From Acinetobacter phage Ab1-TPeters: 64,000 nt of DNA. This document shows, piece after piece, positions 11,699-61,988 of the stretch (positions within the stretch are counted from its first letter, which is position 1; each line of letters begins with the position of its first letter). The notes under the pieces are model-generated. The model ran no database searches. It saw only the letters and a list, made by a program, of their open reading frames with translations, and was not told the DNA's origin. The DNA is taken from sequence record PP763253.1; one strand, given 5' to 3'. A program made the position numbers and the translations under genes.

Positions 11699-11706
11699 TC
11701 ACAATG

Positions 11707-11742
11707 GACTGGGTCATTAAGGCTCAGTCCACTTTTATTTTA
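11707..11742 (+). terminator. terminator-like hairpin (GGACTGGGTCATTAAGGCTCAGTCC + ACTTTTATTTTAT)
   Basis: After the topoisomerase genes. Confidence 0.55.
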
Positions 11743-11757
11743 TCTGGAGTATTTATA

Positions 11758-13254
11758 ATGAAGCCTAAACTTAAAGTAGGTCTTACTTGCAATGGTGGCA
11801 TGATTCGTGGTATTTTCAAAGAAGAAATGAGCCACGCTAACTCAGCAGTTCTCGACAGTGTTATCTATAAAATGTTAGATCGTTTATACGATGTTACTTT
11901 TTATTTACTCAAACCTGCAGCTATGCGAACTACAGAAAAGCTTCTTATGAAAAAGCAAGCTGAAGGTGACGAATTTGCACTGCGTTTTGATCTAACTTAT
12001 AAAAAGGATGTTTCAGAATATCCTAAACATCTTGATCTAATTTTTGCTGGGCAAGGCTCAGATGTTTTGTTAATGACTGGTAATTTCCAGGGTGGTAAAT
12101 TCACTCATGCATTTAGCTACTTCTACACTTTAGCTATGTATCCAGAAGTCCCAGTGTTTGCTATTCAAACTGATTTTGTGACATATTTCCCAGTTACGGA
12201 AAGTTATGGTCACGGCATCTTTACAGGCATGTTTCCAGACCTTTTTGCGAATCGAGGGATGTTTATTATTCCAATGGGGACAACGCCCCAAGACAAGCAT
12301 ATTTATTTCGAAAGAAAGGCTGCAAACAGCTTACCAACACATAATTTTATGTTTACGTCTGTCGATCAACAGTTTATGATTGAACCAGACTGGAGTGATG
12401 CACGTGAGGTGCCTGAGCAAGTCAAAGGTGTAGCATTTGCTGGTAAGGATAGAACTCAAGGTAATCGACTAGGCTCATTCTTAGCCATGTCAAGAAGTGC
12501 ACCTAACGTTCCATTCTTTTTAATTGGTAAGTGGGATTCACAAGGTGCTGTTAATAATATCAAGAATTTTAGCGGTGGCAATGTAACAACAACTCCAAAG
12601 GCAGTTGACCATCATGAAGTTTTAGATTATTATAACGAATATGGCTTCACTGCTTATCTAAGCTGTGTTGAATATCGTAACTGTGCTACTATTACTTCAC
12701 GTTTTACTGACTCGTTAAAAGCAGGTGCAATTCCATTAATCTGGAAAGATGAGGCTGCTACATTTAAGAAGTACTTTGATCCATCTGTTATTGATCGAAT
12801 TACTGTAGATGAGAACAATGGCGCTGACGTAATAGCTTCACTTCAAGATTACTCAGAACGTGTTGAAATTATTAAATATTTGAAGTCACGTTACGAAGAG
12901 CTTCATAAGTTAGTCATTCCAGAAATTGAGGACTACTTAGTTAAAGTAGTTGAGTCAGCAGATGATCTATTTACTCCAATGACTTCAGCTGAATTAGCTA
13001 AACACATTAAGCACCACTTCATGACTCGAAAGAGTCGCCCATTCAAAGAGGAAGATGCTAATAACATTGCTTGCTCAAATGTCCAGTTCATCGGTAAATC
13101 ATTTGATGAGATTAAACATGCCCTACCTTATTCTACTAAGATTCACATGGGTCTATATGGAGTCGCTCGTGATCGTGAGACTTGGGATGATATGCCAGAA
13201 GCTGTAGATAAAGAAGTTACTCGTTTAATGGAATTCTTGCAAGCTCGTAATTGA
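11758..13254 (+). CDS. hypothetical protein (possible DNA-modification accessory)
   Basis: About 498 aa from the ATG at 11758, after a 'TCTGGAGTA' RBS-like element. No recognisable motif. Located between the topoisomerase and two glycosyltransferases. Confidence 0.45.
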   Translation: MKPKLKVGLTCNGGMIRGIFKEEMSHANSAVLDSVIYKMLDRLYDVTFYLLKPAAMRTTEKLLMKKQAEGDEFALRFDLTYKKDVSEYPKHLDLIFAGQGSDVLLMTGNFQGGKFTHAFSYFYTLAMYPEVPVFAIQTDFVTYFPVTESYGHGIFTGMFPDLFANRGMFIIPMGTTPQDKHIYFERKAANSLPTHNFMFTSVDQQFMIEPDWSDAREVPEQVKGVAFAGKDRTQGNRLGSFLAMSRSAPNVPFFLIGKWDSQGAVNNIKNFSGGNVTTTPKAVDHHEVLDYYNEYGFTAYLSCVEYRNCATITSRFTDSLKAGAIPLIWKDEAATFKKYFDPSVIDRITVDENNGADVIASLQDYSERVEIIKYLKSRYEELHKLVIPEIEDYLVKVVESADDLFTPMTSAELAKHIKHHFMTRKSRPFKEEDANNIACSNVQFIGKSFDEIKHALPYSTKIHMGLYGVARDRETWDDMPEAVDKEVTRLMEFLQARN

Positions 13255-13326
13255 GCTTAAAAGCTGTTTTGCTGTAGGTAGCGAGAGTTGCCTGCAGCTT
13301 TTTATTTAGCATTTACTGGAGTAAGC

Positions 13327-14484
13327 ATGGCTAAAATATTAATAATCTCAGACAACTATGTGCCGTTGCTGAAAGATAAAGTAATGGGTGGAGCTGAAGC
13401 TACTCTCATGAACCAGTTAGCTATCCTAACTGAAAAAGGACATGAAATCCGAGTTATTGCCCCAGATGATTCAGATATTGATTTGAAGCAATTAGTTCCA
13501 ATTGGGGAATATTCTAAAGTTTGGTATAATGAAATTGGTTCAGGTGCTCCACGTACTTTGAATAAATTAACTAACCAAGCTATTGATAATGAGATGCGGT
13601 TCTTTAAACCAGATCTGGTTTTGAATCACCATAAACAACCCTCTGTAATTAAGCATCTGTCCCTCTACTCTAAGACAGTTCCTGTTGTTTCTCATGTTCA
13701 CAATGCACCTATCTTTGGTATGCTAAGTGTTAATACTAATAAGGCTTATGCTCAACTAGCTCAAGCTAGAGGTAAGAACTGGGGAGTATCTGGCTGGTGT
13801 ACTCGAATGAACAACGGTTTAGTTGACGGTTGTGTTACTGATACATTCATTATGCAGATTGCACTTGAACGTAAGACAGTTAATCTTCCTGAATACTCTG
13901 CAGTTACTGTAGGACGTTTCGTTGATTGGAAGAACTTACATACTGGTATTGAAGCAATTACTTCAGGTAAGCTATCTGGCCGAGTTGTAGGCTATTCAGA
14001 AGACCCTGAAGATGACTACTGGTTAACTAAGATTAAGCCACTAGTGGAAGGCAATGAGAACTGGCTGACTGGGATCACTCATGCTGAGACTATGGACGTG
14101 GTATCTAGAGCAGTTGTATTCCTCCAGACTTCTCATTTAGAAACTTCGTCATGTACTCAATTTGAAGCAGCTCAACACGGAGTGCCTTCAATTGTTGTAA
14201 CTAAACGAAATGGACATGGTTCATTTGAAGACTCGTTCCTCCCAGACTGGGCTTATATTGAATTAGATAACTACCGTAAGGGTGGTGCATTTACCACTGA
14301 CAAGTTTGTTGAATTATATAACTTGTGGTTTAATTCAGAAACTGGCACCAGCTTGCCTGACTATACTCAACTTGAAGTTCGTCAAAAATTGGCTGATTAT
14401 ATCTACGATAACTTTAATAAAGAAGTCTGGTATTCTAAGTTCGTAGCTAAAGTTAATGATTCATTCAAAGGACAAATTCTGTGA
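13327..14484 (+). CDS. GT4-family (GT-B fold) glycosyltransferase
   Basis: The N-terminal 'KILIISDNYVPLLKDKVMGGAEATLMNQLAILTEKGHEIRVIAP' is typical of GT4 donor-binding N-domains. Start chosen at the ATG after 'ACTGGAGTAAGC'. Confidence 0.55.
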   Translation: MAKILIISDNYVPLLKDKVMGGAEATLMNQLAILTEKGHEIRVIAPDDSDIDLKQLVPIGEYSKVWYNEIGSGAPRTLNKLTNQAIDNEMRFFKPDLVLNHHKQPSVIKHLSLYSKTVPVVSHVHNAPIFGMLSVNTNKAYAQLAQARGKNWGVSGWCTRMNNGLVDGCVTDTFIMQIALERKTVNLPEYSAVTVGRFVDWKNLHTGIEAITSGKLSGRVVGYSEDPEDDYWLTKIKPLVEGNENWLTGITHAETMDVVSRAVVFLQTSHLETSSCTQFEAAQHGVPSIVVTKRNGHGSFEDSFLPDWAYIELDNYRKGGAFTTDKFVELYNLWFNSETGTSLPDYTQLEVRQKLADYIYDNFNKEVWYSKFVAKVNDSFKGQIL

Positions 14485-15593
14485 ATATTTTAATTGTTCA
14501 CTCCTACTTCCATGAATTAGGAGACCTAAATAAACCAGCTGGAGGTATTGAAACTCACACTGCTGGTTTATATAAAGCACTTACTCTTCTAGGTCATGAC
14601 GTAACTATTGCTGCAACTAAAGACTCTAAGTTACAAAAAGATATTAAATTCTTACCTATTGACAATAATTGTAAAGACGCTTCTGAAGGACGTTATTCTC
14701 AAGTTCTTGGTTACGAAAAGGTTACTCAGGAAATCTTAGATGGTGAATTTGATGTGGTTTTAAATAATAACCCGTCTATCTCAGCAATGAAGATAATTGA
14801 TACAGCTTGCCAATTCGCTGGAATAAAACACTTCTACTTTATTCATCAAGTTATTGAAGGCATTTCAGCTAAGTCAGCTATTGATGCTTTGAATCGCAGT
14901 CAAGCTGAACTTATTGCGGTTAGTTCGTATGTCGCTTCTCAAGTACGAAGTCAAGGATATACTGCTGGGCGGATTAAGGTTGTTAACTCAACCTTTGCTG
15001 AACCTGTTGAAAGTATTGTTCCATTTAGATATGAGAAGCAAGCAGTAATGTGTTGCCGAGTAGTTAAGATCCGTGAAGTTTTGTTAGCTGTAAAGACCTT
15101 TGGTGAACTACTTCCAGACTGGAACTTAATAGTTATTGGAGAAGGAGTAAATCACCCAGCTGAAATTCCTTACTTTAATCAAGTTAAAGAGGAAGCTGAG
15201 AAATATGAGAACGTAGACTTAGCTGGTCGTTTAAATCAGGATCAAGCTCACTGTATCATTGATCAATCTTCAGTCTTCTTGAATTTATGTCACTTCGAAG
15301 CCTTTGGTCTAGCTGCATTTGAAGCTCAGAAGTTAGGTATTCCAGTGGTTCACTTCTATAAGGGAGTTAAATCTGGAGTTAGTGACTTTATTCGTGATGA
15401 AGGACGTTATCCTAACACTGACACTGGTGTTGCAGTAAATGTTTCAGGTCTTCGTGAAACAGCACGTAAGAATGAGCTGAAAGAAGCCATCCTTAAGGCA
15501 ACTATGCTAGACAAAGGTTACATTAAAAAGCACTTCAGCAAGTACAGTTTGAAGTCATTTGCTGATGAATTAATGAGAATTATAGGAAGTTAA
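14481..15593 (+). CDS. GT4-family glycosyltransferase
   Basis: 'MNILIVHSYF...PAGGIETHTAGLYKAL..GHDVTIAA' at the N-terminus. A C-terminal 'EAFGLAAFEAQKLGIPVV' matches the GT4 E-x7-E motif. Confidence 0.65.
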   Translation: MNILIVHSYFHELGDLNKPAGGIETHTAGLYKALTLLGHDVTIAATKDSKLQKDIKFLPIDNNCKDASEGRYSQVLGYEKVTQEILDGEFDVVLNNNPSISAMKIIDTACQFAGIKHFYFIHQVIEGISAKSAIDALNRSQAELIAVSSYVASQVRSQGYTAGRIKVVNSTFAEPVESIVPFRYEKQAVMCCRVVKIREVLLAVKTFGELLPDWNLIVIGEGVNHPAEIPYFNQVKEEAEKYENVDLAGRLNQDQAHCIIDQSSVFLNLCHFEAFGLAAFEAQKLGIPVVHFYKGVKSGVSDFIRDEGRYPNTDTGVAVNVSGLRETARKNELKEAILKATMLDKGYIKKHFSKYSLKSFADELMRIIGS

Positions 15594-33985: not shown

Positions 33986-34019
33986 CAAAGCCTAAACTTA
34001 AATTATCTGGAGTTACAAA

Positions 34020-35524: not shown

Positions 35525-36073
35525 ATGACTACCTTAATTAATATCTTTGGTGGACCTAGTGCTGGTAAAACAACACTTTCACTGGGTCTAACCTACGCCT
35601 TAAAGATGGCTGGATATAAAGCTGAATACGTTCACGAAGTAGCTAAATACCCAGCTTTAGTCAATGACATCAAGTACTTTGATTCCCAGTATCATGTCAC
35701 TAACAATCAACATAAGCTTCTTTCTGCTTACTTAGATAATGGTGATCTTGATTTCGTTATTACTGATGCTCCTTTACCATTGGGTTTAATCTATGGTGAG
35801 CATTATGGTAAACTCGACAAGATCACCAAAGAAGCTATTGAAGATCTTTGCTGTTCAGTTCGCTGTAAATCAGTGGTAAACATCCTCAAAGTATATGATC
35901 CAGAAGTAGCTTACGATCCTGTTGGTCGATATCAAATTCAGACAGAAGCTCACGAAATTCACCGTAAAATGACTAAGTTTATCGCTGGAGTAGATCACAT
36001 TCAGATCGGTAAACTTAACGATGAAGTAATCAAAGATCTCGTAACCAATTTAATAAAGAGACATTTTAAATGA
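35525..36073 (+). CDS. P-loop NTPase/kinase (AAA_28/NadR-kinase-like)
   Basis: N-terminal 'INIFGGPSAGKTTL' Walker A. Small size (182 aa). Directly upstream of the dNMP kinase. Confidence 0.45.
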   Translation: MTTLINIFGGPSAGKTTLSLGLTYALKMAGYKAEYVHEVAKYPALVNDIKYFDSQYHVTNNQHKLLSAYLDNGDLDFVITDAPLPLGLIYGEHYGKLDKITKEAIEDLCCSVRCKSVVNILKVYDPEVAYDPVGRYQIQTEAHEIHRKMTKFIAGVDHIQIGKLNDEVIKDLVTNLIKRHFK

Positions 36074-36663
36074 AGCTCATAATGATCAATGGTGCTCCTT
36101 ATTCTGGTAAGGATACAGTTGCAAATCACTTAATGGAGCGTAGTAACGTTTATCGTGCTCGTTTTAAAGATCCACTGTATGAGGCACTTTCTCTATTCTA
36201 CGGTCTTCCACTCAAAGAAGTTGAAGATCTTTGTAATTCACCTAAGGAAATCAAGGATTCACCTCATCCTAAATTCAATGGCAAGTCACCACGTGGTGCT
36301 TTGATTCATATGTCTGAAGATGTGATGAAGCCCAACTTCGGTCTGGATATTGTTAGTAAACTTACTGCTAAGAAAATTCAATGTCTTGAATTAGGTCGTG
36401 ATTACTTTGACTCTGAACTGGTTGTAGTTATGCCAGATTGTGGTTTCCCGAATGAAGTTGAAGAACTTCAGGCTATGTTAGGTCTAGATCGTTCAGACAT
36501 CTTCTTGATTCGAATTGAACGTGAAGGATGTAGTTTTGAGGGTGACTCAAGAACCTACGTACCTAATCCAGACTTAGTTATTTTCAATAACTCTAGTCTA
36601 GTTGACCTATATGCTGTTGTTAATTACAGCGTAATTAATTTTCTAAATAAAGGATCTAAATAA
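36070..36663 (+). CDS. deoxynucleoside monophosphate kinase (T4 gp1-like)
   Basis: 'MKLIMINGAPYSGKDTVANHLM' closely mirrors the T4 gene 1 dNMP kinase N-terminus 'MKLIFLSGVKRSGKDTTADFIM'. Confidence 0.65.
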   Translation: MKLIMINGAPYSGKDTVANHLMERSNVYRARFKDPLYEALSLFYGLPLKEVEDLCNSPKEIKDSPHPKFNGKSPRGALIHMSEDVMKPNFGLDIVSKLTAKKIQCLELGRDYFDSELVVVMPDCGFPNEVEELQAMLGLDRSDIFLIRIEREGCSFEGDSRTYVPNPDLVIFNNSSLVDLYAVVNYSVINFLNKGSK

Positions 36664-37356: not shown

Positions 37357-37373
37357 GTTCACTAGGTGCTTAA

Positions 37374-38109: not shown

Positions 38110-38147
38110 CCTGAAGAGCTGCTTTCTTAGATAAGGCAGGAGTTAAC

Positions 38148-39166: not shown

Positions 39167-39548
39167 TATGCCCAATCAAGAATTAGAGAGACTTTCTGAA
39201 AGATGGGGAGTTGAATTAAGAGGTTTTGAAAATCTGATTATTCCATTAAAAAAGGATGAATACACTGGGATAGGAAAAGAGGCTAATTTAGTAGCTAAAT
39301 TGTTAGAGAAGAGAGGTTATAGACTTAGAGGTTTAAATTTTCAATACAATGAACCTTATGTTGTTGTATTTGATAATGGAACTTATGGATTTACACACAA
39401 CATTCCAAACGATATTTCTAAATTTAAATTTAGAAATATTAAAGACATAAAAGGTGAGCAGATCGTAGACAAAAATTTATTCTTTGGTTTTGTTTATGGG
39501 TCAGTTTTCGGTATTTTAATTACAATTTTCGTAATCTGGTTAATGTGA
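39105..39548 (+). CDS. hypothetical C-terminally membrane-anchored protein
   Basis: 147 aa with a C-terminal TM segment 'FGFVYGSVFGILITIFVIWLM'. Confidence 0.4.
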   Translation: MIGHLINQLNSQRLVKIKEFNMPNQELERLSERWGVELRGFENLIIPLKKDEYTGIGKEANLVAKLLEKRGYRLRGLNFQYNEPYVVVFDNGTYGFTHNIPNDISKFKFRNIKDIKGEQIVDKNLFFGFVYGSVFGILITIFVIWLM

Positions 39549-39613
39549 ATCCAGTTAATTAAAAAGTAAAGCATCTATACCAGATGCAGTAAAATGTTTT
39601 AGAGATAATATCA

Positions 39614-39832
39614 ATGCAAAATAAAACTTACACAGATAATTTAGAAGTATCTGGAGAGGACGAGCTATCTGAGATCAAGAAGAATGCTCCAAGAGGTGCA
39701 AAAGGCTATGCTGAGGTAAATGATAAAGTTATTTACTTTATTAAATCAGCTGTTGGTTGGCGTCAGATTAAAGGTAACTTAATCAGCTTTCACGATAGTG
39801 GTTTACCTTCTCAAATGATAAAGCTCCTTTAA
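39614..39832 (+). CDS. hypothetical protein
   Basis: 72-aa ORF. Confidence 0.3.
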   Translation: MQNKTYTDNLEVSGEDELSEIKKNAPRGAKGYAEVNDKVIYFIKSAVGWRQIKGNLISFHDSGLPSQMIKLL

Positions 39833-40034
39833 TGGGGCTTTATTCACGCCAGTTGAATCTCTGGAATAAGACCAAGAGCTGTTAAGTTAGAGCAGCTGAT
39901 AATAAGGAATAATCAATGGCTACACTGTTAATTAAATTTGCTTTAATTTCGCTTTTTATTTTAGCTTTAATCGGGATTTTGTTTCTGATGAATCAGGCTA
40001 AACACGATTACATAAAACATGAGGAAGATGATCA

Positions 40035-40508
40035 ATGAAGAATTGGTACTCTAGAACTCCGTCTGATTGTTTGATTCCGACATTCACAACTAAAGAGCAT
40101 CGCTGGTTGAGTAACATGTGGCCAGCTAAGTTGATTATAGCTGGAATTGAGTATAATTCTAGTGAGAACGCATATCAAGCATTCAAGTATATCTCTGATA
40201 CTCAGCGCAGATATATAGCTAAACTTACCCCAGCTCACTCTAAGCATTATAGTAAAGAGAATCCACTAACTAATCCTCTATTTGAAGCAAGAAAGGTGGA
40301 GATTATGAGGCAAGCTCTTTATGCTAAATTTACGCAGAATCCTGATCTACGTGATCGTCTTACTTCAACTGGTGATTTGATCCTAGTTGAAGGGAATTGG
40401 TGGGGTGATTTATTCTGGGGAGTAAATAAGGACACTGGATTAGGTCAGAATAACCTAGGTGTTTTACTTATGGAAGTAAGGAGTGCTCTGCGTGACCAAC
40501 AAAGTTAA
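40035..40508 (+). CDS. NADAR / YbiA-like (DUF1768) N-glycosidase-fold protein
   Basis: 'FTTKEHRWLSNMW', 'YNSSENAYQAFKY' and 'GDLILVEGNWWGDLFWGV..GQNNLGVLLMEVR' match the conserved YbiA/NADAR blocks (SN..F, E..YQA.KF, W.G.G..G.N.LG..LM.VR). Confidence 0.65.
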   Translation: MKNWYSRTPSDCLIPTFTTKEHRWLSNMWPAKLIIAGIEYNSSENAYQAFKYISDTQRRYIAKLTPAHSKHYSKENPLTNPLFEARKVEIMRQALYAKFTQNPDLRDRLTSTGDLILVEGNWWGDLFWGVNKDTGLGQNNLGVLLMEVRSALRDQQS

Positions 40509-51634: not shown

Positions 51635-51690
51635 CCTGTTTCTTAAACAATCTACAAGCCTGTTGAAATGTCGGGGCGGTTCGAACCGCC
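51635..51690 (+). promoter_or_regulatory. motif-1 (CCTGTTTCTTAA-N12-CCTGTTGAAATGT + perfect hairpin GGCGGTTCGAACCGCC)
   Basis: Upstream of 51725. Followed by TATAATAT and ACTGGAGT. Confidence 0.5.
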
Positions 51691-51724
51691 TTATACTTTT
51701 ATAATATACACTGGAGTTTATATC

Positions 51725-52345
51725 ATGGCTACTAAAATTTCGAAAATCGTTGTTGCTTTAGAAGGTGCTGCAATTGAGGTTAACGGTCTATCTTACAAAG
51801 TAAGTCAAGGTGCTTTGTATGATGCAGATGGTGAAAAATTAACTCCACGAAAGTTAGGCACAACTTGGTCTGAAATCTTCGAAATGTCTGGAATAAATTT
51901 GGATCCTAAGAAATCTGAACTTGCTTCTTCAGAAGACATTATTGAAGAAGTAAAGAATACTAAGGTAGATGTTCCTGAGAATAAGGATGACTCTTCAAAC
52001 AATCAACAAGACAGTAAACAAGATAGTCAGAACGATCAACAGGATAACCGAGGTCGTCAACCTCGAAAAGAGATAGCTTCTGACGCTAACTTGGAATATT
52101 ACACAACTCCAGGACAGAAAGCTGCTCTAGCTCCAATTTATGAGAAGTCTGATAATAAGACAGCTCAAATGATTATGAGCTACTGGAAAGATGAGATGGA
52201 TCGTGCCACAGTTGTACGAGTTAATCGCGATCAAGTTCTTGAGCTTGATGAAGTGTTTAAGGCTGCGTTAGAAACAGGTGAACACAATATCCCATCACGT
52301 ACATTGAATTCGTTGAAAGCGAAACACGTTGCATTATCTAAATAA
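51725..52345 (+). CDS. hypothetical protein with acidic/Gln-rich linker
   Basis: Track start 51668 lies inside the motif-1 hairpin. The ATG at 51725 after 'TATAATATACACTGGAGTTTATATC' is the likelier start. Confidence 0.45.
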   Translation: MATKISKIVVALEGAAIEVNGLSYKVSQGALYDADGEKLTPRKLGTTWSEIFEMSGINLDPKKSELASSEDIIEEVKNTKVDVPENKDDSSNNQQDSKQDSQNDQQDNRGRQPRKEIASDANLEYYTTPGQKAALAPIYEKSDNKTAQMIMSYWKDEMDRATVVRVNRDQVLELDEVFKAALETGEHNIPSRTLNSLKAKHVALSK

Positions 52346-52351
52346 GATTAC

Positions 52352-52380
52352 GGGGAGTTTAGGCTCCCCTAATTTTTGTA
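52352..52380 (+). terminator. rho-independent terminator (GGGGAGTTTAGGCTCCCC + TAATTTTTG)
   Basis: After 51725..52345. Confidence 0.65.
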
Positions 52381-52418
52381 CTTAGGATTTACGCTGGATA
52401 GGTCTCTGAAATAACCTG

Positions 52419-52436
52419 AAAAGCTGTTTTTAGTAG
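52419..52436 (+). promoter_or_regulatory. motif-2 core (AAAAGCTGTTTTTAGTAG)
   Basis: Upstream of the P-loop kinase at 52448. Confidence 0.4.
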
Positions 52437-52447
52437 AGGTGAATAAG

Positions 52448-53170
52448 ATGTCGTTAAACAAATATTCAGTGGTTTTCTCAGGGACTCAAGGTTCAGGTAA
52501 AACCACTTTAACAAACGCTTGGTCAAAATTAGCTGGAATTCCATATAAAGCAGTTGAGACTAGAAAGTACGTGCCTGAGGGCATTTCTTCACATAAAGAT
52601 ATTATTAATCTTTCTGTAACTAACCCTGAAGTAGCTATTAAATTCCAATCTGATTTAATTCAGAACCGATTCAAACTCTTCAGTGAGTTAATGGAATCAG
52701 ATCAAAAGTTCACTAGTGATCGTGCTGTCATTGACAGTTATGTTTATTACTTGATGCATAACTCAATGTTTGCATGTGAAGAGAACAATCTAGCAAATAA
52801 TGGATTTACTCAAGCAAGTGTTGGTCTATACGATCTAACTGTCTTAATAAATCCTAAGCCTATACATGTTGAAGACGACAGCTTCAGAATTTCAAATTTA
52901 TTCTACAACCGTGCCTATGCTGATTTACATAAGGCTACAACACTTAGAATTTATGATGCGATTTTCGGTAATGCTAAGACATTGTCTAGCTACTCTCACG
53001 AAGGTGAGTTATACAATAATCTTCGCTCTTCAATAACTATGCATGTAGCTAAAACTCAATCTGGATATAAGCGTGGATTGATTATTCTTAATGAACCAGA
53101 TGGTATGATTCCAACTGAAAAACGCTTAAACCTAATTTCTAACGCAGTAAATGCATTTGACCAAATGTAA
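52448..53170 (+). CDS. P-loop nucleoside/nucleotide kinase-like protein
   Basis: 'VVFSGTQGSGKTTLTN' Walker A at the N-terminus. About 240 aa. Directly upstream of the TS-fold enzyme and preceded by motif 2. Confidence 0.5.
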   Translation: MSLNKYSVVFSGTQGSGKTTLTNAWSKLAGIPYKAVETRKYVPEGISSHKDIINLSVTNPEVAIKFQSDLIQNRFKLFSELMESDQKFTSDRAVIDSYVYYLMHNSMFACEENNLANNGFTQASVGLYDLTVLINPKPIHVEDDSFRISNLFYNRAYADLHKATTLRIYDAIFGNAKTLSSYSHEGELYNNLRSSITMHVAKTQSGYKRGLIILNEPDGMIPTEKRLNLISNAVNAFDQM

Positions 53171-53179
53171 GGAAATAAA

Positions 53180-54229
53180 ATGAAATCTTTTGCAGTGCAA
53201 AGTGCCAATCAAGCATTATATGAGTTGACTCAAGAATGTAAGAATGAAGGCTTTAGTTATTCAACAGAAACTTCTCATAATTCAACACCAGTTGTTTCAC
53301 TAGGTCTAACTCACTTAGAGCTTACTAATCCACTAAATCGCTTTATTAATATTAAAGGTCGAAATACTAACATCTTTGGTATTATTGGTGAGTGCATCTG
53401 GGTTCTATCTGGTTCAGCTGAACTAGGTGATTGGATGAAAACTTTAGTTCCTCGATCACCAGATTATGCAGATAATGGTGATACATGGCGTGCAGGTTAT
53501 GGCGAACGAATCTATTACAATGGTCAGATCAACTCTGTAATTGACAGATTAAAACGAGATAATAAAACTCGTCAAGCAGTTCTCTCAATTTATGACCCTA
53601 GCCGTGACACAGATGCTGGAATTAGTGCGGAAATCGGTTCTATTAATACCAAAGATCACGTTTGTAATATGTCAATGGCGTTTAAGATTCGTGATGGCAA
53701 GCTAAACATGACTCTGTTCAACCGCAGTAATGATATCTACTGGGGTTTGTTAAATGTTAACGTTCCAGAATTCACTCTTATTCAAGAGATCATTGCTGCT
53801 TACGTTGGTGTTGAAGTCGGTTCATATAATATTATCTCAGATGATTGTCATATGTATCAAATGCCAGTCATCATGAAACAAGCAGAAGCTGTAATTGAAA
53901 ATTATAACTGGATTGATTCGACAGGTCATGACGATCGTAAGTTGGAATTAAGCCCTAAGATTAATAATATTAATCTTTTGAGAAAGTTCTGTGAGCGAAT
54001 TATCTTTGAATCTGAGATTACTAACGAGAATTCAATTGAGGATTATGATCGTCGAATTCTTTCTATTATTGAAGAGTTTAAAGTTACTGGCAAATTAGCA
54101 GATTACGTTAAAATGGCTTGTTACTATTATGCTTCAACTCTAGGTGTAATTTACCCACGCCTTCGTGATTTAGAATCGTCTTATCTGGAAGAGTTAATCG
54201 ATAACTCTTACTTCAATCCCACGAAGTAA
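53180..54229 (+). CDS. divergent thymidylate-synthase-fold enzyme (dNMP C5-methylase/hydroxymethylase family)
   Basis: 'CNMSMAFKIRDGKLNMTLFNRSNDIYWGLLNVNVPEFTLIQEII..DDCHMY' aligns block-for-block with ThyA '[50 protein letters not shown]'. The catalytic Cys and the R-S pair are conserved, and an Asn sits near the ThyA N177 position. The canonical CH..QFYV block is not conserved. Confidence 0.65.
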   Translation: MKSFAVQSANQALYELTQECKNEGFSYSTETSHNSTPVVSLGLTHLELTNPLNRFINIKGRNTNIFGIIGECIWVLSGSAELGDWMKTLVPRSPDYADNGDTWRAGYGERIYYNGQINSVIDRLKRDNKTRQAVLSIYDPSRDTDAGISAEIGSINTKDHVCNMSMAFKIRDGKLNMTLFNRSNDIYWGLLNVNVPEFTLIQEIIAAYVGVEVGSYNIISDDCHMYQMPVIMKQAEAVIENYNWIDSTGHDDRKLELSPKINNINLLRKFCERIIFESEITNENSIEDYDRRILSIIEEFKVTGKLADYVKMACYYYASTLGVIYPRLRDLESSYLEELIDNSYFNPTK

Positions 54230-54237
54230 GATCCGTC

Positions 54238-54270
54238 AGCTCTTGATTCCGGTCAAGAGCTTTTTATTTT
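54238..54270 (+). terminator. rho-independent terminator (AGCTCTTGATTCCGGTCAAGAGCT + TTTTATTTT)
   Basis: After the TS-fold gene, before the HD gene ATG. Confidence 0.65.
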
Positions 54271-54296
54271 GTAATAAACAACGTAAGAGAAATGTA

Positions 54297-54980
54297 ATGA
54301 ACCCAACCAAATTAGTTTCAAAGATTCTCTCCGTATTCCGTTTCGCTGGAATACCTATTATTGGCGATCGTTTAAACATTGCTGAGCATTCATATGAAGT
54401 TAGTTTATATGCAACTAAACTAGCTCGTCAACTTCTTAAAGATGGTCACATTGATGGAGCGAAAGCCCATCTTATTGTTGAACATGCTGTCCTACATGAC
54501 ATACCTGAAACGATGACTGGAGATATTCCTTACCCAGTTAAATCTCAATATCCACAGTTAAAAGAAATTTTAGATAAAATCGAGGAAGATATTACCTTTT
54601 CTGAGTTGTCAATCTTTCCTATTCATTATGACACTGACGTTTTATTCATTGTTAAACTATGTGATCTTTTAGCGGTATTCCGTGAAATGTCTGCTGAATT
54701 AGATTTAGGAAATTATGAATTGAATGAGGGTTATGTTAAATCTAACTGTCTAAAAATTTTAGAAACAGCTATTAATAAATATAAGCTAGACACTCCAGCT
54801 AAAGTAGCTGCAATGCAAGAGATCGCTTTTGACTTTATGTCACTTAAGAGTAAAAATGAGTTGAAAGGAATCTTAGTTTCAGCTATTCTCTGTCAGTTAG
54901 AATTTAATGGTGTAGATAAAGATGAATATCGAGAGCTTGATCAAAGATTTACAGAAGAGTGTAAAGCCTCAGTCTCTTAA
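54297..54980 (+). CDS. HD-domain phosphohydrolase (YfbR-like 5'-deoxynucleotidase-like)
   Basis: 'HSYEVSLYA..' and 'AVLHDIPETMTGDIP' give the H...HD...D metal-binding pattern. The track start is a TTG inside the upstream terminator hairpin; an ATG at about 54297 is likelier. Confidence 0.55.
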   Translation: MNPTKLVSKILSVFRFAGIPIIGDRLNIAEHSYEVSLYATKLARQLLKDGHIDGAKAHLIVEHAVLHDIPETMTGDIPYPVKSQYPQLKEILDKIEEDITFSELSIFPIHYDTDVLFIVKLCDLLAVFREMSAELDLGNYELNEGYVKSNCLKILETAINKYKLDTPAKVAAMQEIAFDFMSLKSKNELKGILVSAILCQLEFNGVDKDEYRELDQRFTEECKASVS

Positions 54981-55926
54981 TGCACGTGTATTTAATGGCC
55001 GAGCTAAAGAGTTTGATCCAGCTGAACATGAAGTACTTGGAGAATCAACTGATCATTATCACTATAACTGTCCTTTCTGTTTAGAAGAAAGAGGTAAGGA
55101 AGATGATGATGGTAAGTTCTATTGGAACTTCCAAAAATTTGTAGGTTGGTGTTTTAAGTGCAAAACTATCGGATTCCTCAAGACAGATAAACCAATTGAG
55201 CAAGTTAAGATTGATATGATGCTACAGTCATTTATATCGAATGCTTCAAGAATTGAGTATGAGCTAATGAGAGAAATCTTTAACTCATCAATTAGCTTTA
55301 ACTGTCTTGATTTTTCATCTAAGTTGTCTGAAAGAGCTTTAAACTATCTAGATGAACGTATTCCGTTTTACTCAGAAGTAGCAGAAGCTCTAGGATTTAC
55401 TGAAGTAAGTGAAACTGGGGTTTTAATTCCAACTTACATTAGAGGTCAATGTAAATCATATAACATTCGACTTTATAATCCTACAGGTAAAATGAAGTAT
55501 TACCTAGCTAAGAATGTTGAGAAGTATCCGTATTCACCAACTCGTGTATTTGATAAGGCTGGATCAGTTGGCCAAATCACATTAGTAGAGGGAGCATTTG
55601 ATGCTTTGGGAGCCTACTTCGATGGTTATTCAAACCCAATTGCATTGAATGGCTTATCTATAACTCCTATGATTGCCTTTCTACTAAAAACAATTATCCC
55701 AGAGTCAGTGGTAATTTATCTGGATGATGAAGAAAAATCTCAGAAGATTAAGCGAGATATTCGTAGAATATTTCCAACTGTGTCTAGTATAAGGGTTCGG
55801 AAAACATGGGGTCAAGATCCTGAAGAAGTATTTAAGTACAAATTAGGAAGAGCTTCTCCAGAGTATCTACTAGGTGTTTTAGAAAGAATTAATAAACTAA
55901 AGGAACTTAATAATGAATCCACGTGA
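54922..55926 (+). CDS. DnaG-type DNA primase (zinc ribbon + TOPRIM)
   Basis: 'CPFCLEERG..(22)..CFKCKT' zinc-binding domain. TOPRIM 'VEGAFDALGAY' and 'IYLDDEEKSQ'. Overlaps the HD gene by about 59 nt. Confidence 0.6.
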   Translation: MNIESLIKDLQKSVKPQSLNARVFNGRAKEFDPAEHEVLGESTDHYHYNCPFCLEERGKEDDDGKFYWNFQKFVGWCFKCKTIGFLKTDKPIEQVKIDMMLQSFISNASRIEYELMREIFNSSISFNCLDFSSKLSERALNYLDERIPFYSEVAEALGFTEVSETGVLIPTYIRGQCKSYNIRLYNPTGKMKYYLAKNVEKYPYSPTRVFDKAGSVGQITLVEGAFDALGAYFDGYSNPIALNGLSITPMIAFLLKTIIPESVVIYLDDEEKSQKIKRDIRRIFPTVSSIRVRKTWGQDPEEVFKYKLGRASPEYLLGVLERINKLKELNNEST

Positions 55927-56644
55927 GGCCATGCTGACCTCGATCTTCAACTTTCCTGAGGAGTTTCGAGTAACTTCGAACCCTCGACCTAGAAAGGGGT
56001 TGTTCATTGGTAGTATCAATAAATGTGCACGTTATCTTCTAATTGCAATGAAAGTACCTAAGCAGTTAAATGGTATTAATGTAGTTTACTTAGAAAACGT
56101 TCAGATGTCTTCTAACGCTGATTATATCGTTAGCATGGGCAATGAGATTGAGAATGTCATGAGACGACATTTGAAATATCGTAAAGTGCCAATCCATGCA
56201 GATCAAATGCAGATAACTGAACTGGACGGTAAGATCAGAGGATTCCTTGACTTCGGTGTTGAAGTTGAAGGAATTGGTATGATTATTATTGATGCCAAGG
56301 GAATGAGTGAATCTGTATTTGCTCGATTCACTGCTGCAGCAACTTTGCTGGATTTCAAAGAAGATTACTTCTATCAGGTTCTTCATTACATCAATTCAGT
56401 TAAGCTAGAATATGGCTATATTGTTGGTGTTAATAGATCAACTGGGCAAGTTGCGGTTAAGGAAGTTTCTCGAGCTAAATACCAAGACTTATATAATAAG
56501 TCAATGGAACGTAGCAAGAAAATAATTGTTACTCCTATTGAAGAGTATCATACTCTTGAAGCTGCACCAGATAATGAATGTACTCAATGTGAATTCGTAT
56601 CTGCGTGCCGCCCAGAATTTTACGCCAGTTTAGGTGTAAATTGA
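55913..56644 (+). CDS. putative PD-(D/E)xK nuclease with C-terminal Cys cluster (Cas4/RecB-nuclease-like)
   Basis: 'GIGMIIIDAKG' resembles the (D/E)xK core. C-terminal 'ECTQCEFVSACRP' is a Cx2Cx5C cluster, as in Cas4-type FeS nucleases. Confidence 0.4.
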   Translation: MNPREAMLTSIFNFPEEFRVTSNPRPRKGLFIGSINKCARYLLIAMKVPKQLNGINVVYLENVQMSSNADYIVSMGNEIENVMRRHLKYRKVPIHADQMQITELDGKIRGFLDFGVEVEGIGMIIIDAKGMSESVFARFTAAATLLDFKEDYFYQVLHYINSVKLEYGYIVGVNRSTGQVAVKEVSRAKYQDLYNKSMERSKKIIVTPIEEYHTLEAAPDNECTQCEFVSACRPEFYASLGVN

Positions 56645-58778: not shown

Positions 58779-61700
58779 ATGACCAAATTTTTGACTGACT
58801 TGACTTTACAAGATCAGGCTGTTTTTATTCTGTTATCTCAAACCAACAACTCAAGAGCATTTGAGAATGGTTATGCTGCTGACTTCTTAAATTTTGTTAC
58901 TATTAACTCTCCTCATCGAATTGGTTATGTTGAAATTACCAATGAAAATGAAGAGCATGTTCTTAATCAAGAAGAAATTTCTAAGTTGAAAGATTTAGTT
59001 GGAAACCGTAAGGTTATTCTTTTAGGTAAGAACACAGTAAAAGCAATTGCTGGTGAGTTGATTAACAACCGAGTTCGTTATTTATCTTTGTTGGATATGT
59101 CATACTTGACTTGTGCTAACTTAGGTAAAGTAGCGATTTGTGGTCACCCAATGTCTTACAAAGACGTCTTTAAAGGAAATGTTGATGCTCAACAGAAACT
59201 TATTCTACGTGTTGATGAGTTAATTCAGCCACGTGCTAAAGAATATGAAGTTGAAATTGTAGCTCCCTCACTGGACGATCTTGAAGACATCTTAAATCTA
59301 TGTGCCAATCAACCAGCCATTGGTTACGACATTGAAGCAAACGATTTAGATATTTGGGCAGCTCACTGGGAAAAGAACTTATTTAGTCTGTCAGTGTTCG
59401 AATCAGAATCTAAACTTATGTCATTCTGGTTTAACTGGCGTGAATTTACTTCGGATCATAAGAGATTATTTGAAAATTTCTTAGATAAGAATCAGTCTAA
59501 AATTTGGACTTACAACTGTACATATGAAATCCAAGCAGCTTGGAGAGTCTTCGGTAAACGTTACTTATTTCAAGATGCTTTGATCTTAACTACTATGGAT
59601 GCTAACCGTGGTGATCTTAAGACTAACGCTCGTAAGTATTTGAAATGTGATTTCTGGGAAGATGAGCTAGCGAGTATTCGTGATGTTTATGAAGCCTTTT
59701 TCAAATTATTCTTAGATAAAGGTAAAAAGAATTCAATACATGATGAGTTCAAAGCTTTTGTTAAATCAGATCAATTCCAGAATTTAGATAATCTTCGTGA
59801 GTTTCTGATTTCTAAGGGTAGAAAACCAGAATGGATGAATGATATTAATGATTTAGCAGTTGCTTTAGGTGAAGATGAAGTAGTCAAAGGTATCTCTGAA
59901 TTTCCATATCAGTGGTCAGCAGTTCCATTCGACATTTTAGGTAAATACTGTTGTTACGATTCAGCTTACACTCTGCCAATTGCAGCTAAACTGTACGGTA
60001 AGTATGAGAAAGGATATAAACATTACATCAAACACCCTTGGTTAGCTTGTATCTTTGAAGCATGGGGATGTGGTTGGGATGAATCTAAAGCTAAGGAAGT
60101 TGAGAAAGATTATTTACGTTTGATGAATGAATCTCTAAGTGAATTGATCTTAAATCTTCAACCTAAGTTAGGTCTTCGAGCTCTAGATGTTAAACCGATT
60201 CTTCAGTGGAAATTACCACATGAGGCTACTTCATACACAGCTACAGGTAAAGAACGTAAACATAAGGTGTTGTCTGAGTACGATCGTCATGGTTGGATTA
60301 AAGGTATTTACAATCCTGGTTCAAACACGGCTGATGCTCGAGCTGTATTCTGGGATGTTTACTTAACAGAACGAGTTGAGTTAGCAACATTTGCATATAC
60401 TCTTGTCAATGATCTTCGATTCAGAGGAATCTGGGAGAAGTTACTGATTAAGATGATTGAAATGACAGAGTTCAAGTCTAAAGATGAAAGTAAGACTGAG
60501 AACGAATTCTTAACTGAATATGGTGCAGCTCAAGTTCTTGAAATGTTGTCAGTATTCTTAGAAAATCCAAATTTAACTGATCGTGAGACAGTTAAGATCT
60601 TGGCTTCTAGTTTCACTGAGACGAATAAGACCTATAAAGACAATACTGGACGTAACGCTAAAGAAGTAATGGCAGCTCAGTATGAGATTCAATGTCAATT
60701 CTTTGGTGTTGACATTGATGATGAATCTACTTGGACTCCTGAATTCAAGATTCTATTCTTACTTCAGAAATATAAGAAAGTAGCGAAAGCTCTGTCTACT
60801 TATGTTAATGGTAAGTTAGGTCGAGGATGTGTATGGTTGTCTAAAGTATTTCCAGATCGTCCTCCAGTTCGATTGAAACCTTATCATGAGGTTGAGGAAG
60901 GATATAAACTTAAACTTGATGAGAAGTTAATTGCATTCTATGACTTTAATAGTTTGTCTGCATCAACTCACCGTTGGGGATCTGGATTCCATACTATTAG
61001 CCCAGGTGTAGCTATCCGCAGTGCTTTAGTTCCGTACTACAGCAATCAGATCTGGACTCATATTGACTTTAGTCAGGCTGAGTTGGTGATGTTGGCATTC
61101 TTCAGTCAAGACCCTAACATGATTAAAGTATTCATGGAAGGTGGAGATATGCACAGATATGTAGCTAGTCTAGTGTATCAGAAGAAGCCTGAGGATGTTA
61201 CTTCAGAAGAACGTCGTGTAGCTAAGACAGTATCATTTGGTATTGTTTACGGTAAGGGTATTGAGAACTTAGCTCTAGAAATCACTGGAGGTGATGTTCC
61301 TCGTGCTCAAGCAATTTTCGATGCTTTCTTCGTGTCATTCCCTGGAATCAAGAAATGGATGGATGAGCGTAAGACTCAAGGTCGTGAAACAGGTAAGGTG
61401 ACTAATCTGTTTGGTGCATTGATTGAGGTGGAAGATGGCTTCAGTAAAGGTAACGCTATTGATCGTCACTCAGTAAACTACCCAATCCAGTCTTCATCTT
61501 CAATGGTTGCTGGTGGTTCAATGTACGACTTGTGTTCTACAGTTGACCAACAAGGAATCTTTGGAACTGGAGTTGGATTCGTGCACGATGCATTAGATCA
61601 TACAGTTGATATCGACAATCTGGTTAACTTCTTAGTTTATTCTAAGAAAGTGATGCAGGATCAAGTTTATGAAGAACTTGGTACTCCGATGAAGATTGAC

Positions 61701-61988
61701 CAAGAGATTGGTGCGACAGCTCTAGACTTATGTGAGCTGAAGAGCTTCACTGAACTTGAAAATGGTTTAGAAATCATTCTCGGAGGTGACGAAGAGGCTG
61801 TAAATAAACTGGTTGACAAGTTTAGAGTAGAGAGTGCTAAGTACGTTATTGACAACACTGAAATCATTGACAGTTCAGACTCATATACATCTTGGGAAGG
61901 ATTGTTTACTGAGAAAGGTGCATATAGTTCAGATCGTGGTCAAACGTTAAAGAAAGTTAAGACTAAAGTGACTCTTCGCTATAGTTAA
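58779..61988 (+). CDS. family A DNA polymerase (Pol I-like, with 3'-5' exonuclease domain)
   Basis: Exo I 'YDIEAN'. Motif A 'IDFSQAELVMLAFFS' (DYSQIELR). Motif B 'RRVAKTVSFGIVYGKG' (RxxxKxxxFGxxYG). Motif C 'VHDAL' (VHDE). Preceded by motif 2; a hairpin terminator follows. Confidence 0.8.
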   Translation: MTKFLTDLTLQDQAVFILLSQTNNSRAFENGYAADFLNFVTINSPHRIGYVEITNENEEHVLNQEEISKLKDLVGNRKVILLGKNTVKAIAGELINNRVRYLSLLDMSYLTCANLGKVAICGHPMSYKDVFKGNVDAQQKLILRVDELIQPRAKEYEVEIVAPSLDDLEDILNLCANQPAIGYDIEANDLDIWAAHWEKNLFSLSVFESESKLMSFWFNWREFTSDHKRLFENFLDKNQSKIWTYNCTYEIQAAWRVFGKRYLFQDALILTTMDANRGDLKTNARKYLKCDFWEDELASIRDVYEAFFKLFLDKGKKNSIHDEFKAFVKSDQFQNLDNLREFLISKGRKPEWMNDINDLAVALGEDEVVKGISEFPYQWSAVPFDILGKYCCYDSAYTLPIAAKLYGKYEKGYKHYIKHPWLACIFEAWGCGWDESKAKEVEKDYLRLMNESLSELILNLQPKLGLRALDVKPILQWKLPHEATSYTATGKERKHKVLSEYDRHGWIKGIYNPGSNTADARAVFWDVYLTERVELATFAYTLVNDLRFRGIWEKLLIKMIEMTEFKSKDESKTENEFLTEYGAAQVLEMLSVFLENPNLTDRETVKILASSFTETNKTYKDNTGRNAKEVMAAQYEIQCQFFGVDIDDESTWTPEFKILFLLQKYKKVAKALSTYVNGKLGRGCVWLSKVFPDRPPVRLKPYHEVEEGYKLKLDEKLIAFYDFNSLSASTHRWGSGFHTISPGVAIRSALVPYYSNQIWTHIDFSQAELVMLAFFSQDPNMIKVFMEGGDMHRYVASLVYQKKPEDVTSEERRVAKTVSFGIVYGKGIENLALEITGGDVPRAQAIFDAFFVSFPGIKKWMDERKTQGRETGKVTNLFGALIEVEDGFSKGNAIDRHSVNYPIQSSSSMVAGGSMYDLCSTVDQQGIFGTGVGFVHDALDHTVDIDNLVNFLVYSKKVMQDQVYEELGTPMKIDQEIGATALDLCELKSFTELENGLEIILGGDEEAVNKLVDKFRVESAKYVIDNTEIIDSSDSYTSWEGLFTEKGAYSSDRGQTLKKVKTKVTLRYS

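Follow-up and report, generated by a model that had tools for sequence, protein, structure and literature searches.

We analysed a 64,000-nt stretch of the genome of Acinetobacter phage Ab1-TPeters (PP763253.1), referred to here as the window, which has a guanine-plus-cytosine content of ca. 37% and carries all of its sizeable open reading frames (ORFs) on the + strand. Three neighboring genes in the window encode a P-loop kinase that we designate K1 (52448..53170), a 349-amino acid (aa) protein with a thymidylate synthase (TS) fold (53180..54229), and a 227-aa YfbR-like HD phosphohydrolase (54297..54980). An initial annotation of this DNA had described these kinase, TS-fold, and HD ORFs at 52419-54980 and had proposed that the TS-fold protein is a repurposed enzyme of the hydroxymethylase type. 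All three ORFs were confirmed and assigned to Pfam families, and the proposed repurposing was borne out by the residue signature, tree placement, fold, and conserved synteny, as well as by kinship with phages reported to have hypermodified thymidine; the phage itself probably has its thymine replaced or decorated. Based on sequence comparison and structural modeling, we conclude that the TS-fold protein is predicted to act as a deoxyuridine monophosphate (dUMP) hydroxymethylase-type enzyme. We consider it reasonably probable that the whole set forms a pathway in which this enzyme makes 5-hydroxymethyl-dUMP (hm-dUMP), K1 serves as the hm-dUMP kinase, the HD enzyme removes the competing nucleotide, and a phage DNA polymerase incorporates the product, with later decoration of the modified base.

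The TS-fold protein matches Pfam PF00303 at 58.0 bits (1.1e-15; gathering cut-off 24.3), which indicates the fold and superfamily rather than the reaction, and PHROG 3676 at 8.8e-76. We aligned it with SPO1 gp29, T4 gp42, M6 gp58, Det7 gp108, PhiW-14 gp230, a segment of MilA, E. coli ThyA, and a phage ThyA. The E. coli sequence has the canonical residues at all numbered positions and behaves like the independent canonical phage ThyA (L026). The catalytic Cys, DGKL element, Arg-Ser pair, and Asn near position 177 that had been noted earlier are all in place, as Cys162 within VCN, DGKL at 172-175, N-R-S-N-D at 181-185, and LNVNV at 191-195. In E. coli ThyA numbering, the residues that are kept comprise Glu58, Tyr94, Arg126, Cys146, Arg166, Ser167, Asp169, Asn177, His207, and Tyr209; the catalytic, phosphate, and folate set of the window protein includes Cys162, Arg182, Ser183, Asp185, the Glu of GECIW, and Tyr107. 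In contrast, Trp80 is lost, Trp83 is changed to Tyr, Leu143 to Asp, His147 to Asn, Gln165 to Asn, and Cys168 to Asn. The ThyA block C-H..QFYV, which the initial annotation had reported as lost, reads C-N..AFKI, and the protein is 32% longer than E. coli ThyA (349 versus 264 aa), in agreement with the earlier estimate of about 30%. The Trp80 equivalent in TS shields the exocyclic methylene from water, and mutating it leads to release of hm-dUMP.

At 19 tabulated core positions, the states of the window protein are those of SPO1 gp29, which is a dUMP hydroxymethylase according to its record annotation, except for Tyr/Phe at 83 and Val/Ala at 176. The two proteins are 37% identical over the core and share the Cys-Asn pair, the N-R-S-N-D motif, the retained Asn177, and the loss of Trp80. 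M6 gp58, Det7 gp108, and PhiW-14 gp230 have most of the signature states and differ at 127, 165, or 168. The signature itself (Cys-Asn, N-R-S-N-D, Leu143 to Asp, and loss of Trp80) derives from the present alignment and is not a published rule. SPO1 gp29, PhiW-14 gp230, M6 gp58, and Det7 gp108 (346-383 aa) also resemble the window protein in combining a TS fold with a C-terminal helical extension, and SPO1 gp29-type genes, like the window gene, lie close to genes for the DNA polymerase and for nucleotide-pool enzymes of the phage. Overall identity to the SPO1, PhiW-14, M6, and ViI-like enzymes is only 29-37%, and that to the EP_H11 protein is 46%.

Similarity searches gave the same ranking. 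By BLASTP, the protein is 37% identical to SPO1 gp29 (9e-39) and 24% identical to E. coli ThyA (2.5e-15), and it matches T4 gp42 at 3e-4. The best matches among annotated phages are in Ralstonia phage RP13, E. coli phages EP_H11 and IME392, ViI-like Ackermannviridae, and PhiW-14, where the protein is named 'deoxyuridylate hydroxymethyltransferase'. ViI and M6 carry bases derived from 5-hydroxymethyldeoxyuridine (5-hmdU) (PMC5889632), and in PhiW-14 hm-dUMP is made by a phage synthase (PMC5977210). The best solved relative by sequence is the CMP hydroxymethylase MilA (phmmer, 2e-18); thymidylate synthases follow at 1e-9 or worse. In a neighbor-joining tree (249 columns, 200 bootstraps), E. coli ThyA and the canonical phage ThyA split from all other sequences at 100%. 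The window protein groups with those of EP_H11, P0002, RP13, Det7, and PhiW-14 (89%), beside a clade of SPO1 gp29 and M6 gp58 (94%). This larger clade, defined by Asn at the base-specifying position, is supported at 68% and excludes MilA and gp42.

The AlphaFold2 (AF2) model of the protein has a mean predicted local distance difference test (pLDDT) score of 88.3 and consists of a TS core followed by six C-terminal helices (residues 229-339). This ca. 120-aa helical extension stands where ThyA has its active-site-closing C-terminal residue, ThyA-type proteins ending at ca. 264-316 aa. In Foldseek searches MilA matched the model with a query-normalized TM-score (TMq) of 0.70-0.74 over ca. 330-360 columns, including the C-terminal helical domain, whereas ThyA matched at ca. 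0.55 over the core only. In the tree the protein does not group with ThyA, and its model is fitted better by MilA than by ThyA.

These data bear directly on whether the protein is instead a divergent but genuine thymidylate synthase, with K1 as a thymidylate kinase and the HD protein as a general dNMP (deoxynucleoside monophosphate) nucleotidase, the three genes then serving ordinary nucleotide supply without DNA modification. The Pfam and PHROG family name is thymidylate synthase, the protein retains every dUMP-binding and catalytic residue as well as Asp169, which binds folate, and the PHROG families nearest K1 are labeled 'thymidylate kinase'. We nevertheless regard this explanation as very improbable: canonical ThyA is split off with full bootstrap support, Trp80 is missing, neither His147 nor Gln165 is retained, the C-terminus carries the long helical extension, the residue signature is that of SPO1 gp29, and the closest phage homologs come from phages with proven 5-hmdU-derived bases (ViI-like, PhiW-14, M6). 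Canonical ThyA (EC 2.1.1.45) was rejected as an assignment on the Cys-Asn pair, the Gln165 to Asn change, the Trp80 deletion, the C-terminus, and the tree placement.

The similarity to MilA also raises the question of a cytosine nucleotide (dCMP or CMP) hydroxymethylase, as in T4 gp42 or MilA, which would lead to glycosylated 5-hydroxymethylcytosine DNA. MilA is the best solved-structure match by both sequence and fold, and the window encodes glycosyltransferases and a gp1-type dNMP kinase, as in T-even phages. MilA (PDB 5B6D, 5JNH), an enzyme of mildiomycin biosynthesis, shares the C-terminal helical domain and the R-(S/A)-N-D motif with the window protein; unlike it, MilA has Asp and Cys-Thr in place of Asn and Cys-Asn, acts on a ribonucleotide, and serves antibiotic synthesis. 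The base-specifying residue of the window protein is Asn194 (equivalent to E. coli Asn177), whereas MilA, P0031, and T4 gp42 have Asp; position 147 is Asn, as in dUMP hydroxymethylases, rather than the Thr of MilA and gp42; the tree places the protein in the Asn-type clade, away from both; and the BLASTP match to T4 gp42 is marginal. A dCMP/CMP hydroxymethylase was therefore rejected on the base-specifying residue, Asn and not Asp, and we find a cytosine product scarcely credible.

The surrounding genes tie the window to a recently described phage group. Its family-A DNA polymerase (PolA; 58779..61988, 1069 aa; Pfam DNA_pol_A 4.4e-45) is of the RP13/EP_H11/IME392 type; the PolA proteins of RP13, IME392, EP_H11, and Rhizobium RHph phages align with it at 29-33% identity over 81-97% of the length. 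In a tblastn search, residues 45-1055 (95% of the length) aligned with RP13 PolA at 32% identity (2e-142). The protein is longer than the 900 aa, and homologous along its length, as required here for placement in the RP13-like group. RP13, EP_H11, and IME392 have been placed in 2025 with the more distant YerA41, Carin-5, and SP-15 in this 'RP13-like' group, whose members are reported or inferred to have hypermodified, sugar- and phosphate-bearing thymidines, and the TS genes of RP13 (BCG50104) and EP_H11 (WBU87640), the same genes that were matched here, are listed as presumed hm-dUMP synthases (PMC12686479). The window shares with RP13-like phages a PolA of more than 1,000 aa (ca. 95% of the length), a helicase, a primase, topoisomerase II, RNA polymerase (RNAP) beta'-like genes, the TS-fold gene, and the K1-TS-HD trio, at only 30-50% aa identity. 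It differs in that its replication and nucleotide block lies ca. 36 kb from the block of topoisomerase II and cassette genes. Carin-5, which likewise has a GC content of 37%, was rejected as the identity of the window, as the window PolA is only ca. 30% identical to those of the RP13/EP_H11 group and a nucleotide match is lacking.

The K1-TS-HD trio, or an HD-K1 pair with TS nearby, is found in EP_H11, RP13, and the metagenomic contigs L006, L008, L013, L014, and L015; eight related genomes or contigs share the module, each having the same helicase and a PolA of ca. 1,070-1,110 aa. Some of these also encode HMUDK_hel (PF18723), one of the families of the M6 and ViI pathways together with 5-HMUDK (PF18748) and the amino-acid:DNA transferase (AADT; PF18724) (PMC5889632, PMC8989533). 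In L006, L008, L013, and EP_H11 the order is HMUDK_hel, K1, TS, HD, a small ORF, a primase-like gene, the helicase, and the long PolA, with HMUDK_hel directly 5' of K1 in EP_H11, L006, and L013 and two small genes between them in L008. In L014 a dCTP deaminase gene is followed by TS, HD, K1, the helicase, and PolA, and the order in L015 is K1, TS, HD, helicase, dCTP deaminase. RP13 has adjacent HD and K1 genes, with TS 8 kb off and HMUDK_hel 18 kb off on the other strand. In every one of the nine genomes and contigs, K1 is a direct neighbor of TS or HD, whereas HMUDK_hel is adjacent, or nearly so, in only four. The pre-replicative arm of M6 resembles the window as well: a dUMP hydroxymethylase gene (gp58) is followed by a YfbR-like HD gene (gp59), near the polymerase. 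M6 makes 5-(2-aminoethyl)deoxyuridine (5-NedU) from 5-hmdU.

The nearest sequenced relative over window positions 1918-48899 is Acinetobacter phage vB_AbaM_3098 (PV081573.1), which is collinear at 45-79% aa identity. Its 55.6-kb record, described as 'complete, circular', is without structural genes, ligase, TS, and PolA, and the virion is similar in size to that of a 166-kb myovirus (PMC12656882). Because these gene sets are missing while the virion resembles that of a much larger phage, the record is probably partial, perhaps owing to modified DNA. This kinship also hints at an Acinetobacter-like host for the phage of the window. A megablast search of window positions 52000-56000 against the phage collection gave no nucleotide match, and an exact-protein lookup found a single other contig carrying the module genes, a 5.6-kb Logan contig.

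The HD protein matches the Pfam YfbR-like family (PF12917) at 56.8 bits (3e-15; cut-off 25.9) and HD_3 at 2.8e-8. Its PDB matches are YfbR (1.9e-5) and DatZ (1.3e-3), as well as Lin2634 and an OxsA-like protein. The segment AEHS...HDIPETMTGD aligns with SEHS...HDASEVLTGD of YfbR, and the protein retains the metal ligands H...HD...D together with the Glu and Asp residues of HD-x2-E-x4-D. The HD protein differs from YfbR and DatZ in having a C-terminal extension of ca. 70 aa, and identity to either is at most ca. 25%. YfbR is a dNMP nucleotidase; DatZ, the dATP triphosphohydrolase of phage S-2L, depletes a canonical nucleotide that would otherwise compete with a modified one, the same role as that proposed for the HD protein. 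The published hmU pathway needs a hydroxymethylase, a dNMP kinase, and a dTMPase/dTTPase (PMC8989533). Because these are exactly the functions that could be assigned to the K1-TS-HD module, its composition supports the proposed pathway; given the conserved pairing with the hydroxymethylase gene, a dTMPase or dTTPase is the best inference for the HD enzyme.

K1 matches Pfam AAA_28 (1.9e-8) and, weakly, dNK (1.3e-3), and is thus a P-loop kinase of AAA_28 or dNK-TMPK type. The initial annotation had called for a comparison of K1 and of a second AAA_28 kinase, K2 (35525..36073; 7.5e-8), with 5-hmdU DNA kinase families. K1 gave no match to PF18748 at E <= 0.1, and K2 matched only AAA_28, AAA_26, and nSTAND3 at E <= 0.01, whereas M6 gp54, a proven 5-hmdU DNA kinase (PMC8989533) used as the positive control, matched PF18748 at 7.7e-18; both window kinases were accordingly ruled out as members of this family. 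In BLASTP comparisons of K1 with M6 gp54 or Det7 gp107, only the P-loop matched. K1 and K2 are themselves unrelated at the BLAST level (BLASTP E = 2), and phage homologs of K2 are annotated as AAA ATPase, nicotinamide mononucleotide adenylyltransferase, or thymidylate kinase. Two database labels also came to light during these searches: Det7 gene 107 (L004 4204-4866), which matches the 5-HMUDK hidden Markov model (HMM) at 4e-13 and lies just 5' of a TS homolog, is annotated 'baseplate hub, T4 gp57-like', and M6 gp54 (L011 11686-12249) is labeled 'terminase small subunit' in RefSeq. Both are likely misannotations.

The wider K1 family points in the same direction as K1 itself. An exhaustive HMMER search recovered 897 representatives, the best 150 of which are stand-alone proteins of ca. 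190-250 aa, the single exception being a repetitive protein of 4,710 aa; otherwise, no domain fusion that would reveal a partner was found among these 150. Among 71 relatives scanned, AAA_28 was present in 71 and dNK in 43, with PF18748 outside the 25 commonest families. The AF2 model of K1 (pLDDT 83) has NadR ribosylnicotinamide kinase, deoxynucleoside kinases, and thymidylate kinases as its Foldseek neighbors in the PDB, and its BFVD neighbors are annotated similarly. A PDB profile search with the K1 family gave generic P-loop matches only, and the PDB copy searched held no solved 5-HMUDK structure for comparison. The PHROG families nearest K1 carry the label 'thymidylate kinase', as mentioned above, and the conserved motifs T-R-x3-P-x-G, F-Q, and D-R-x-V-x-D-S-x2-Y presumably recall thymidylate kinase motifs, which we treat as a lead only. 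Distant K1 relatives (29-32% identity, E 1e-13 to 1e-19) occur near ca. 250-aa TS homologs with Asp at the base-specifying position. The K1 family therefore accompanies C5-pyrimidine-modifying TS homologs of both specificities, which fits a kinase for modified dNMPs. Because K1 lies outside PF18748 and resembles dNK/TMPK-type nucleotide kinases, it is most likely an hm-dUMP kinase, a role that its sequence and model make more likely than that of a DNA-level kinase analog. As a separate observation, in IMG/VR loci L016-L025 a K1-family kinase gene directly follows a ca. 730-aa PolA near cytosine-type TS homologs of ca. 250 aa; these loci may represent a separate phage group with C5-modified cytosine and the same kinase family.

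The flanking kinase also separates the window from better-known systems: the PhiW-14 TS gene is flanked by a gp1-like or phiC31 gp52-like dNMP kinase and that of Det7 by a PF18748 DNA kinase, whereas the window has an AAA_28-type kinase in this place. A T4 gp1-type dNMP kinase, designated K3, is encoded elsewhere in the window (36070..36663). It matches PHROG 139 'deoxynucleoside monophosphate kinase' at 4e-43 over residues 1-186; its match to Pfam DNMK (22.6 bits) covers the N-terminus only and is under the 27.1-bit cut-off. The gp1-type kinase, second small P-loop kinase, and two glycosyltransferase family 4 (GT4) enzymes mentioned in the initial annotation were thus all found, at 36070-36663, 35525-36073, and 13288-15593, respectively.

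In the proposed pathway, Cys162 of the 349-aa protein would attack C6 of dUMP, and a methylene group would be transferred from methylene-tetrahydrofolate. The exocyclic methylene intermediate would then be quenched by water rather than by hydride, giving hm-dUMP instead of dTMP. K1 would convert hm-dUMP to hm-dUDP, which a host nucleoside diphosphate kinase would convert to hm-dUTP. The HD hydrolase would remove the competing canonical thymidine nucleotide (dTMP, or dTTP/dUTP), and the RP13-type family-A polymerase encoded ca. 4 kb downstream would incorporate hm-dUMP in place of dTMP. The resulting 5-hmdU would probably be decorated after replication, the likely agents being a 516-aa protein and the two GT4 enzymes encoded by the topoisomerase II genes.

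Several points weigh against this pathway. As Kropinski et al. (PMC5977210) point out, hydroxymethylases and synthases cannot strictly be told apart by sequence alone. The YfbR/OxsA/DatZ family comprises hydrolases of mono-, di-, and triphosphates, DatZ and OxsA being triphosphohydrolases, so that a dTMPase is only one option, and no dCMP or dCTP deaminase, as a source of dUMP, was found in the window. K1 may be redundant as an hm-dUMP kinase, because the gp1-type K3 is already encoded in the window. The link from the glycosyltransferases to the DNA is indirect, resting on cassette position and distant homologs. In addition, K1 lies beside HMUDK_hel in EP_H11, L006, and L013, or two genes away in L008, like the gp54/gp55 pair of M6, and the complete EP_H11 genome has HMUDK_hel and no PF18748-like kinase, K1 being its only small Walker-A kinase.

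The arrangement with HMUDK_hel could mean that the hydroxymethylase is the same, with K1 as a non-orthologous analog of the 5-hmdU DNA kinase that would add phosphate to the hydroxymethyl group of 5-hmdU in DNA and so prime it for substitution, and with hm-dUMP handled by the gp1-type kinase or by the host Tmk. Det7, in which the gene that matches the 5-HMUDK HMM precedes the TS homolog, provides the same kinase-then-TS order with a bona fide 5-HMUDK, and the window does encode a separate gp1-type dNMP kinase. We consider this role for K1 unlikely, though a serious alternative, on four grounds: K1 has no PF18748 match, and this family is not one of the 25 commonest in the 71 relatives scanned, in contrast to the strong match of M6 gp54; the structural neighbors of K1 are small-molecule kinases and not polynucleotide kinases; K1 stays by TS or HD where HMUDK_hel is 18 kb off (RP13), is not within 10 kb (L014, L015), or is absent (the window); and K1 relatives also accompany cytosine-type TS homologs. 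We therefore retain K1 as the candidate hm-dUMP kinase.

The window also differs from relatives in its post-replicative genes. None of PF18748, PF18723, and PF18724 was detected in it, whereas the M6 controls gp54, gp55, and gp51 matched at 7.7e-18, 8e-56, and 1.4e-46, respectively; M6 thus has all three post-replicative families and the window none of the three. Likewise, no HMUDK_hel or AADT homolog was found by tblastn or with HMMs built here in these 64 kb, the rest of the genome being unseen, whereas EP_H11 and RP13 have HMUDK_hel, and HMUDK_hel and/or AADT were found in EP_H11, L006, L008, L013, and RP13. The route through a 5-hmdU DNA kinase and an amino acid transferase that is used by M6 and ViI is accordingly less likely in this phage. 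No ThyX motif was found in the window.

The segment from topoisomerase II to K1 is occupied in EP_H11 and L013 by a variable cassette that ends in HMUDK_hel; that of L013 includes phosphatidylserine (PS) decarboxylase-like, ATP-grasp, and PIG-L genes. In the window the block from K1 to PolA lies ca. 36 kb from topoisomerase II (8443-11698), and the slot after topoisomerase II holds the 516-aa protein (11704..13254), two GT4 enzymes (13288..14484 and 14481..15593; Pfam Glyco_transf_4 and Glycos_transf_1), and a 158-aa ORF. The cassette of the window is thus made up of GT4 enzymes, whereas those of EP_H11 and L013 are other gene sets (PS decarboxylase-like, ATP-grasp, PIG-L). The second GT4 enzyme has a homolog in RP13 (82305-83198; 26%, 1e-7), ca. 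4.6 kb from the RP13 HMUDK_hel gene. Because the window has glycosyltransferases in this slot and no HMUDK_hel was found in it, individual phages of the group may apply different chemistry to 5-hmdU.

The 516-aa protein, the first gene product after topoisomerase II, is a candidate DNA glycosyltransferase, and as such a lead only. It has no Pfam or PHROG match and is 62% identical to a vB_AbaM_3098 protein. It is also 22% identical (7e-9) to the product of Maribacter phage Colly_1 gene 100, which is annotated 'beta glucosyl transferase'. BLASTP against T4 beta-glucosyltransferase found nothing, hhalign gave a probability of 0.4% with one suggestive 40-residue segment, and a PDB profile search found nothing. 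Because these direct comparisons returned nothing significant, the 'glucosyltransferase' label derives from the annotation of another record and from gene context. One attractive yet rather doubtful extension of the pathway is that 5-hmdU is decorated by direct sugar attachment, as a base J-like glycosyl-hmU that is perhaps extended to an oligosaccharide, by the 516-aa protein and the GT4 pair; the 5-HMUDK/transferase route would then be bypassed, and K1 and HD would supply two enzymes of hmU phages that have long lacked an assignment, the hm-dUMP kinase and the dTMPase/dTTPase. Under direct glycosylation, the 516-aa protein would be a candidate for a new DNA glycosyltransferase family shared with Colly_1. 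The Colly_1 locus (L038, 3735-8494) encodes topoisomerase II, UDP-glucose dehydrogenase, an epimerase, the 'beta glucosyl transferase', and a 359-aa TS homolog. The latter is 40% identical to the MilA core and has a mixed signature, with Cys-Thr and M-R-S-N-D as in MilA and gp42, yet Asn at the base-specifying position.

Replacement or hypermodification of thymidine shields phage DNA from restriction enzymes and CRISPR, and makes genomes hard to sequence. The biochemistry of hm-dUMP kinase and of dTMPase or dTTPase has been known since the 1970s and has rarely been tied to genes; the trio offers gene candidates for both activities. The window also extends the recently proposed RP13-like group by a divergent lineage, and its nearest sequenced relative, vB_AbaM_3098, is a therapy-candidate phage for Acinetobacter. 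The strategy is a known one of which this is a new, divergent example; it is of value for its kinase-hydroxymethylase-HD core, which is conserved, and for a cassette whose content hints at another chemistry downstream. Should the prediction be confirmed, modification-aware sequencing would be needed for phages of this lineage, and the enzymes could serve for 5-hmU labeling in DNA.

We also examined the boundaries and expression signals of the three genes. The K1 start is likelier to be ATG 52448 than GTG 52439: a GAGGTG Shine-Dalgarno sequence lies 7 nt before this ATG, and the resulting product agrees with the 240-aa gene call on the Logan contig. The HD gene probably starts at ATG 54297 (227 aa, as called on the same contig) rather than at TTG 54243, which falls within a hairpin. 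A promoter-like motif, AAAAGCTGTTT, which is 'motif 2' of the initial annotation, lies at 52419..52429, 19 nt 5' of the K1 ATG. It has 24 matches in the window with at most one mismatch, against 3.9 +/- 2.0 expected by chance, and the copies are nearly always 13-160 nt 5' of + strand ORFs for replication and nucleotide metabolism. Copies also precede gyrB, the first GT4 gene, ligase, the helicase, and PolA. Copies on the + strand include those at 2951, 8381, 13259, 16841, 17577, 18257, 19510, 24448, 36944, 48555, 49292, 51623, 52419, 56649, 58742, 62051, 62131, and 62163. The motif takes the form AA[AC]AGCTGTTT, often with AACTC-N-AAATTGA before it, and probably serves as promoter for a single temporal class of genes; RNAP beta'-like proteins are encoded by the phage.

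Scanning and folding identified two terminator-like hairpins, each with a T-run. The first (52352..52369; -14.0 kcal/mol, z = -3.3, with none of 200 shuffles equally stable) closes the upstream gene 51668-52345. The second, a 10-bp hairpin (54238..54261; -13.6 kcal/mol, z = -3.95), lies between the TS-fold and HD genes and could be a terminator or an attenuator. The initial annotation had treated the three genes as one transcription unit. Given the hairpin between the TS-fold and HD genes, a single unit would need read-through. No copy of the motif is present within the 68 bp from the TS stop codon to the HD start codon, so that expression of the HD, primase, and nuclease genes probably depends on read-through of the 54238-54261 hairpin.

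Other features of the window are noted here in brief. The ORF at 51668-52345 (225 aa), located between the ligase region and K1, contains a central low-complexity segment rich in Asn, Gln, Asp, and Ser, is without a family match, and occupies the slot where EP_H11, L006, L008, and L013 have HMUDK_hel. It was ruled out as a degenerate HMUDK_hel, having no Pfam match and no similarity to HMUDK_hel. A cluster at 32136-40508 comprises a His_Phos_1 histidine phosphatase (32136-32834), K2, K3, and a NADAR protein (40035-40508), and may be a second module of nucleotide or NAD/ADP-ribose metabolism. An RNAP beta'-like protein (22684-24207; Rpb1 domains 3-5) is 49% identical to its counterpart in EP_H11 and 78% to that in phage 3098, and a conserved 417-aa protein (25685-26938) is common to RP13 (ORF87) and EP_H11; together these two ORFs point to a phage-encoded multisubunit RNAP. 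The region at 16841-20100 is gene-poor, with a tRNA-Arg (18399-18475), a tRNA-Met (18862-18936), and four copies of the promoter-like motif, and the matching region of phage 3098 also carries a tRNA-Arg.

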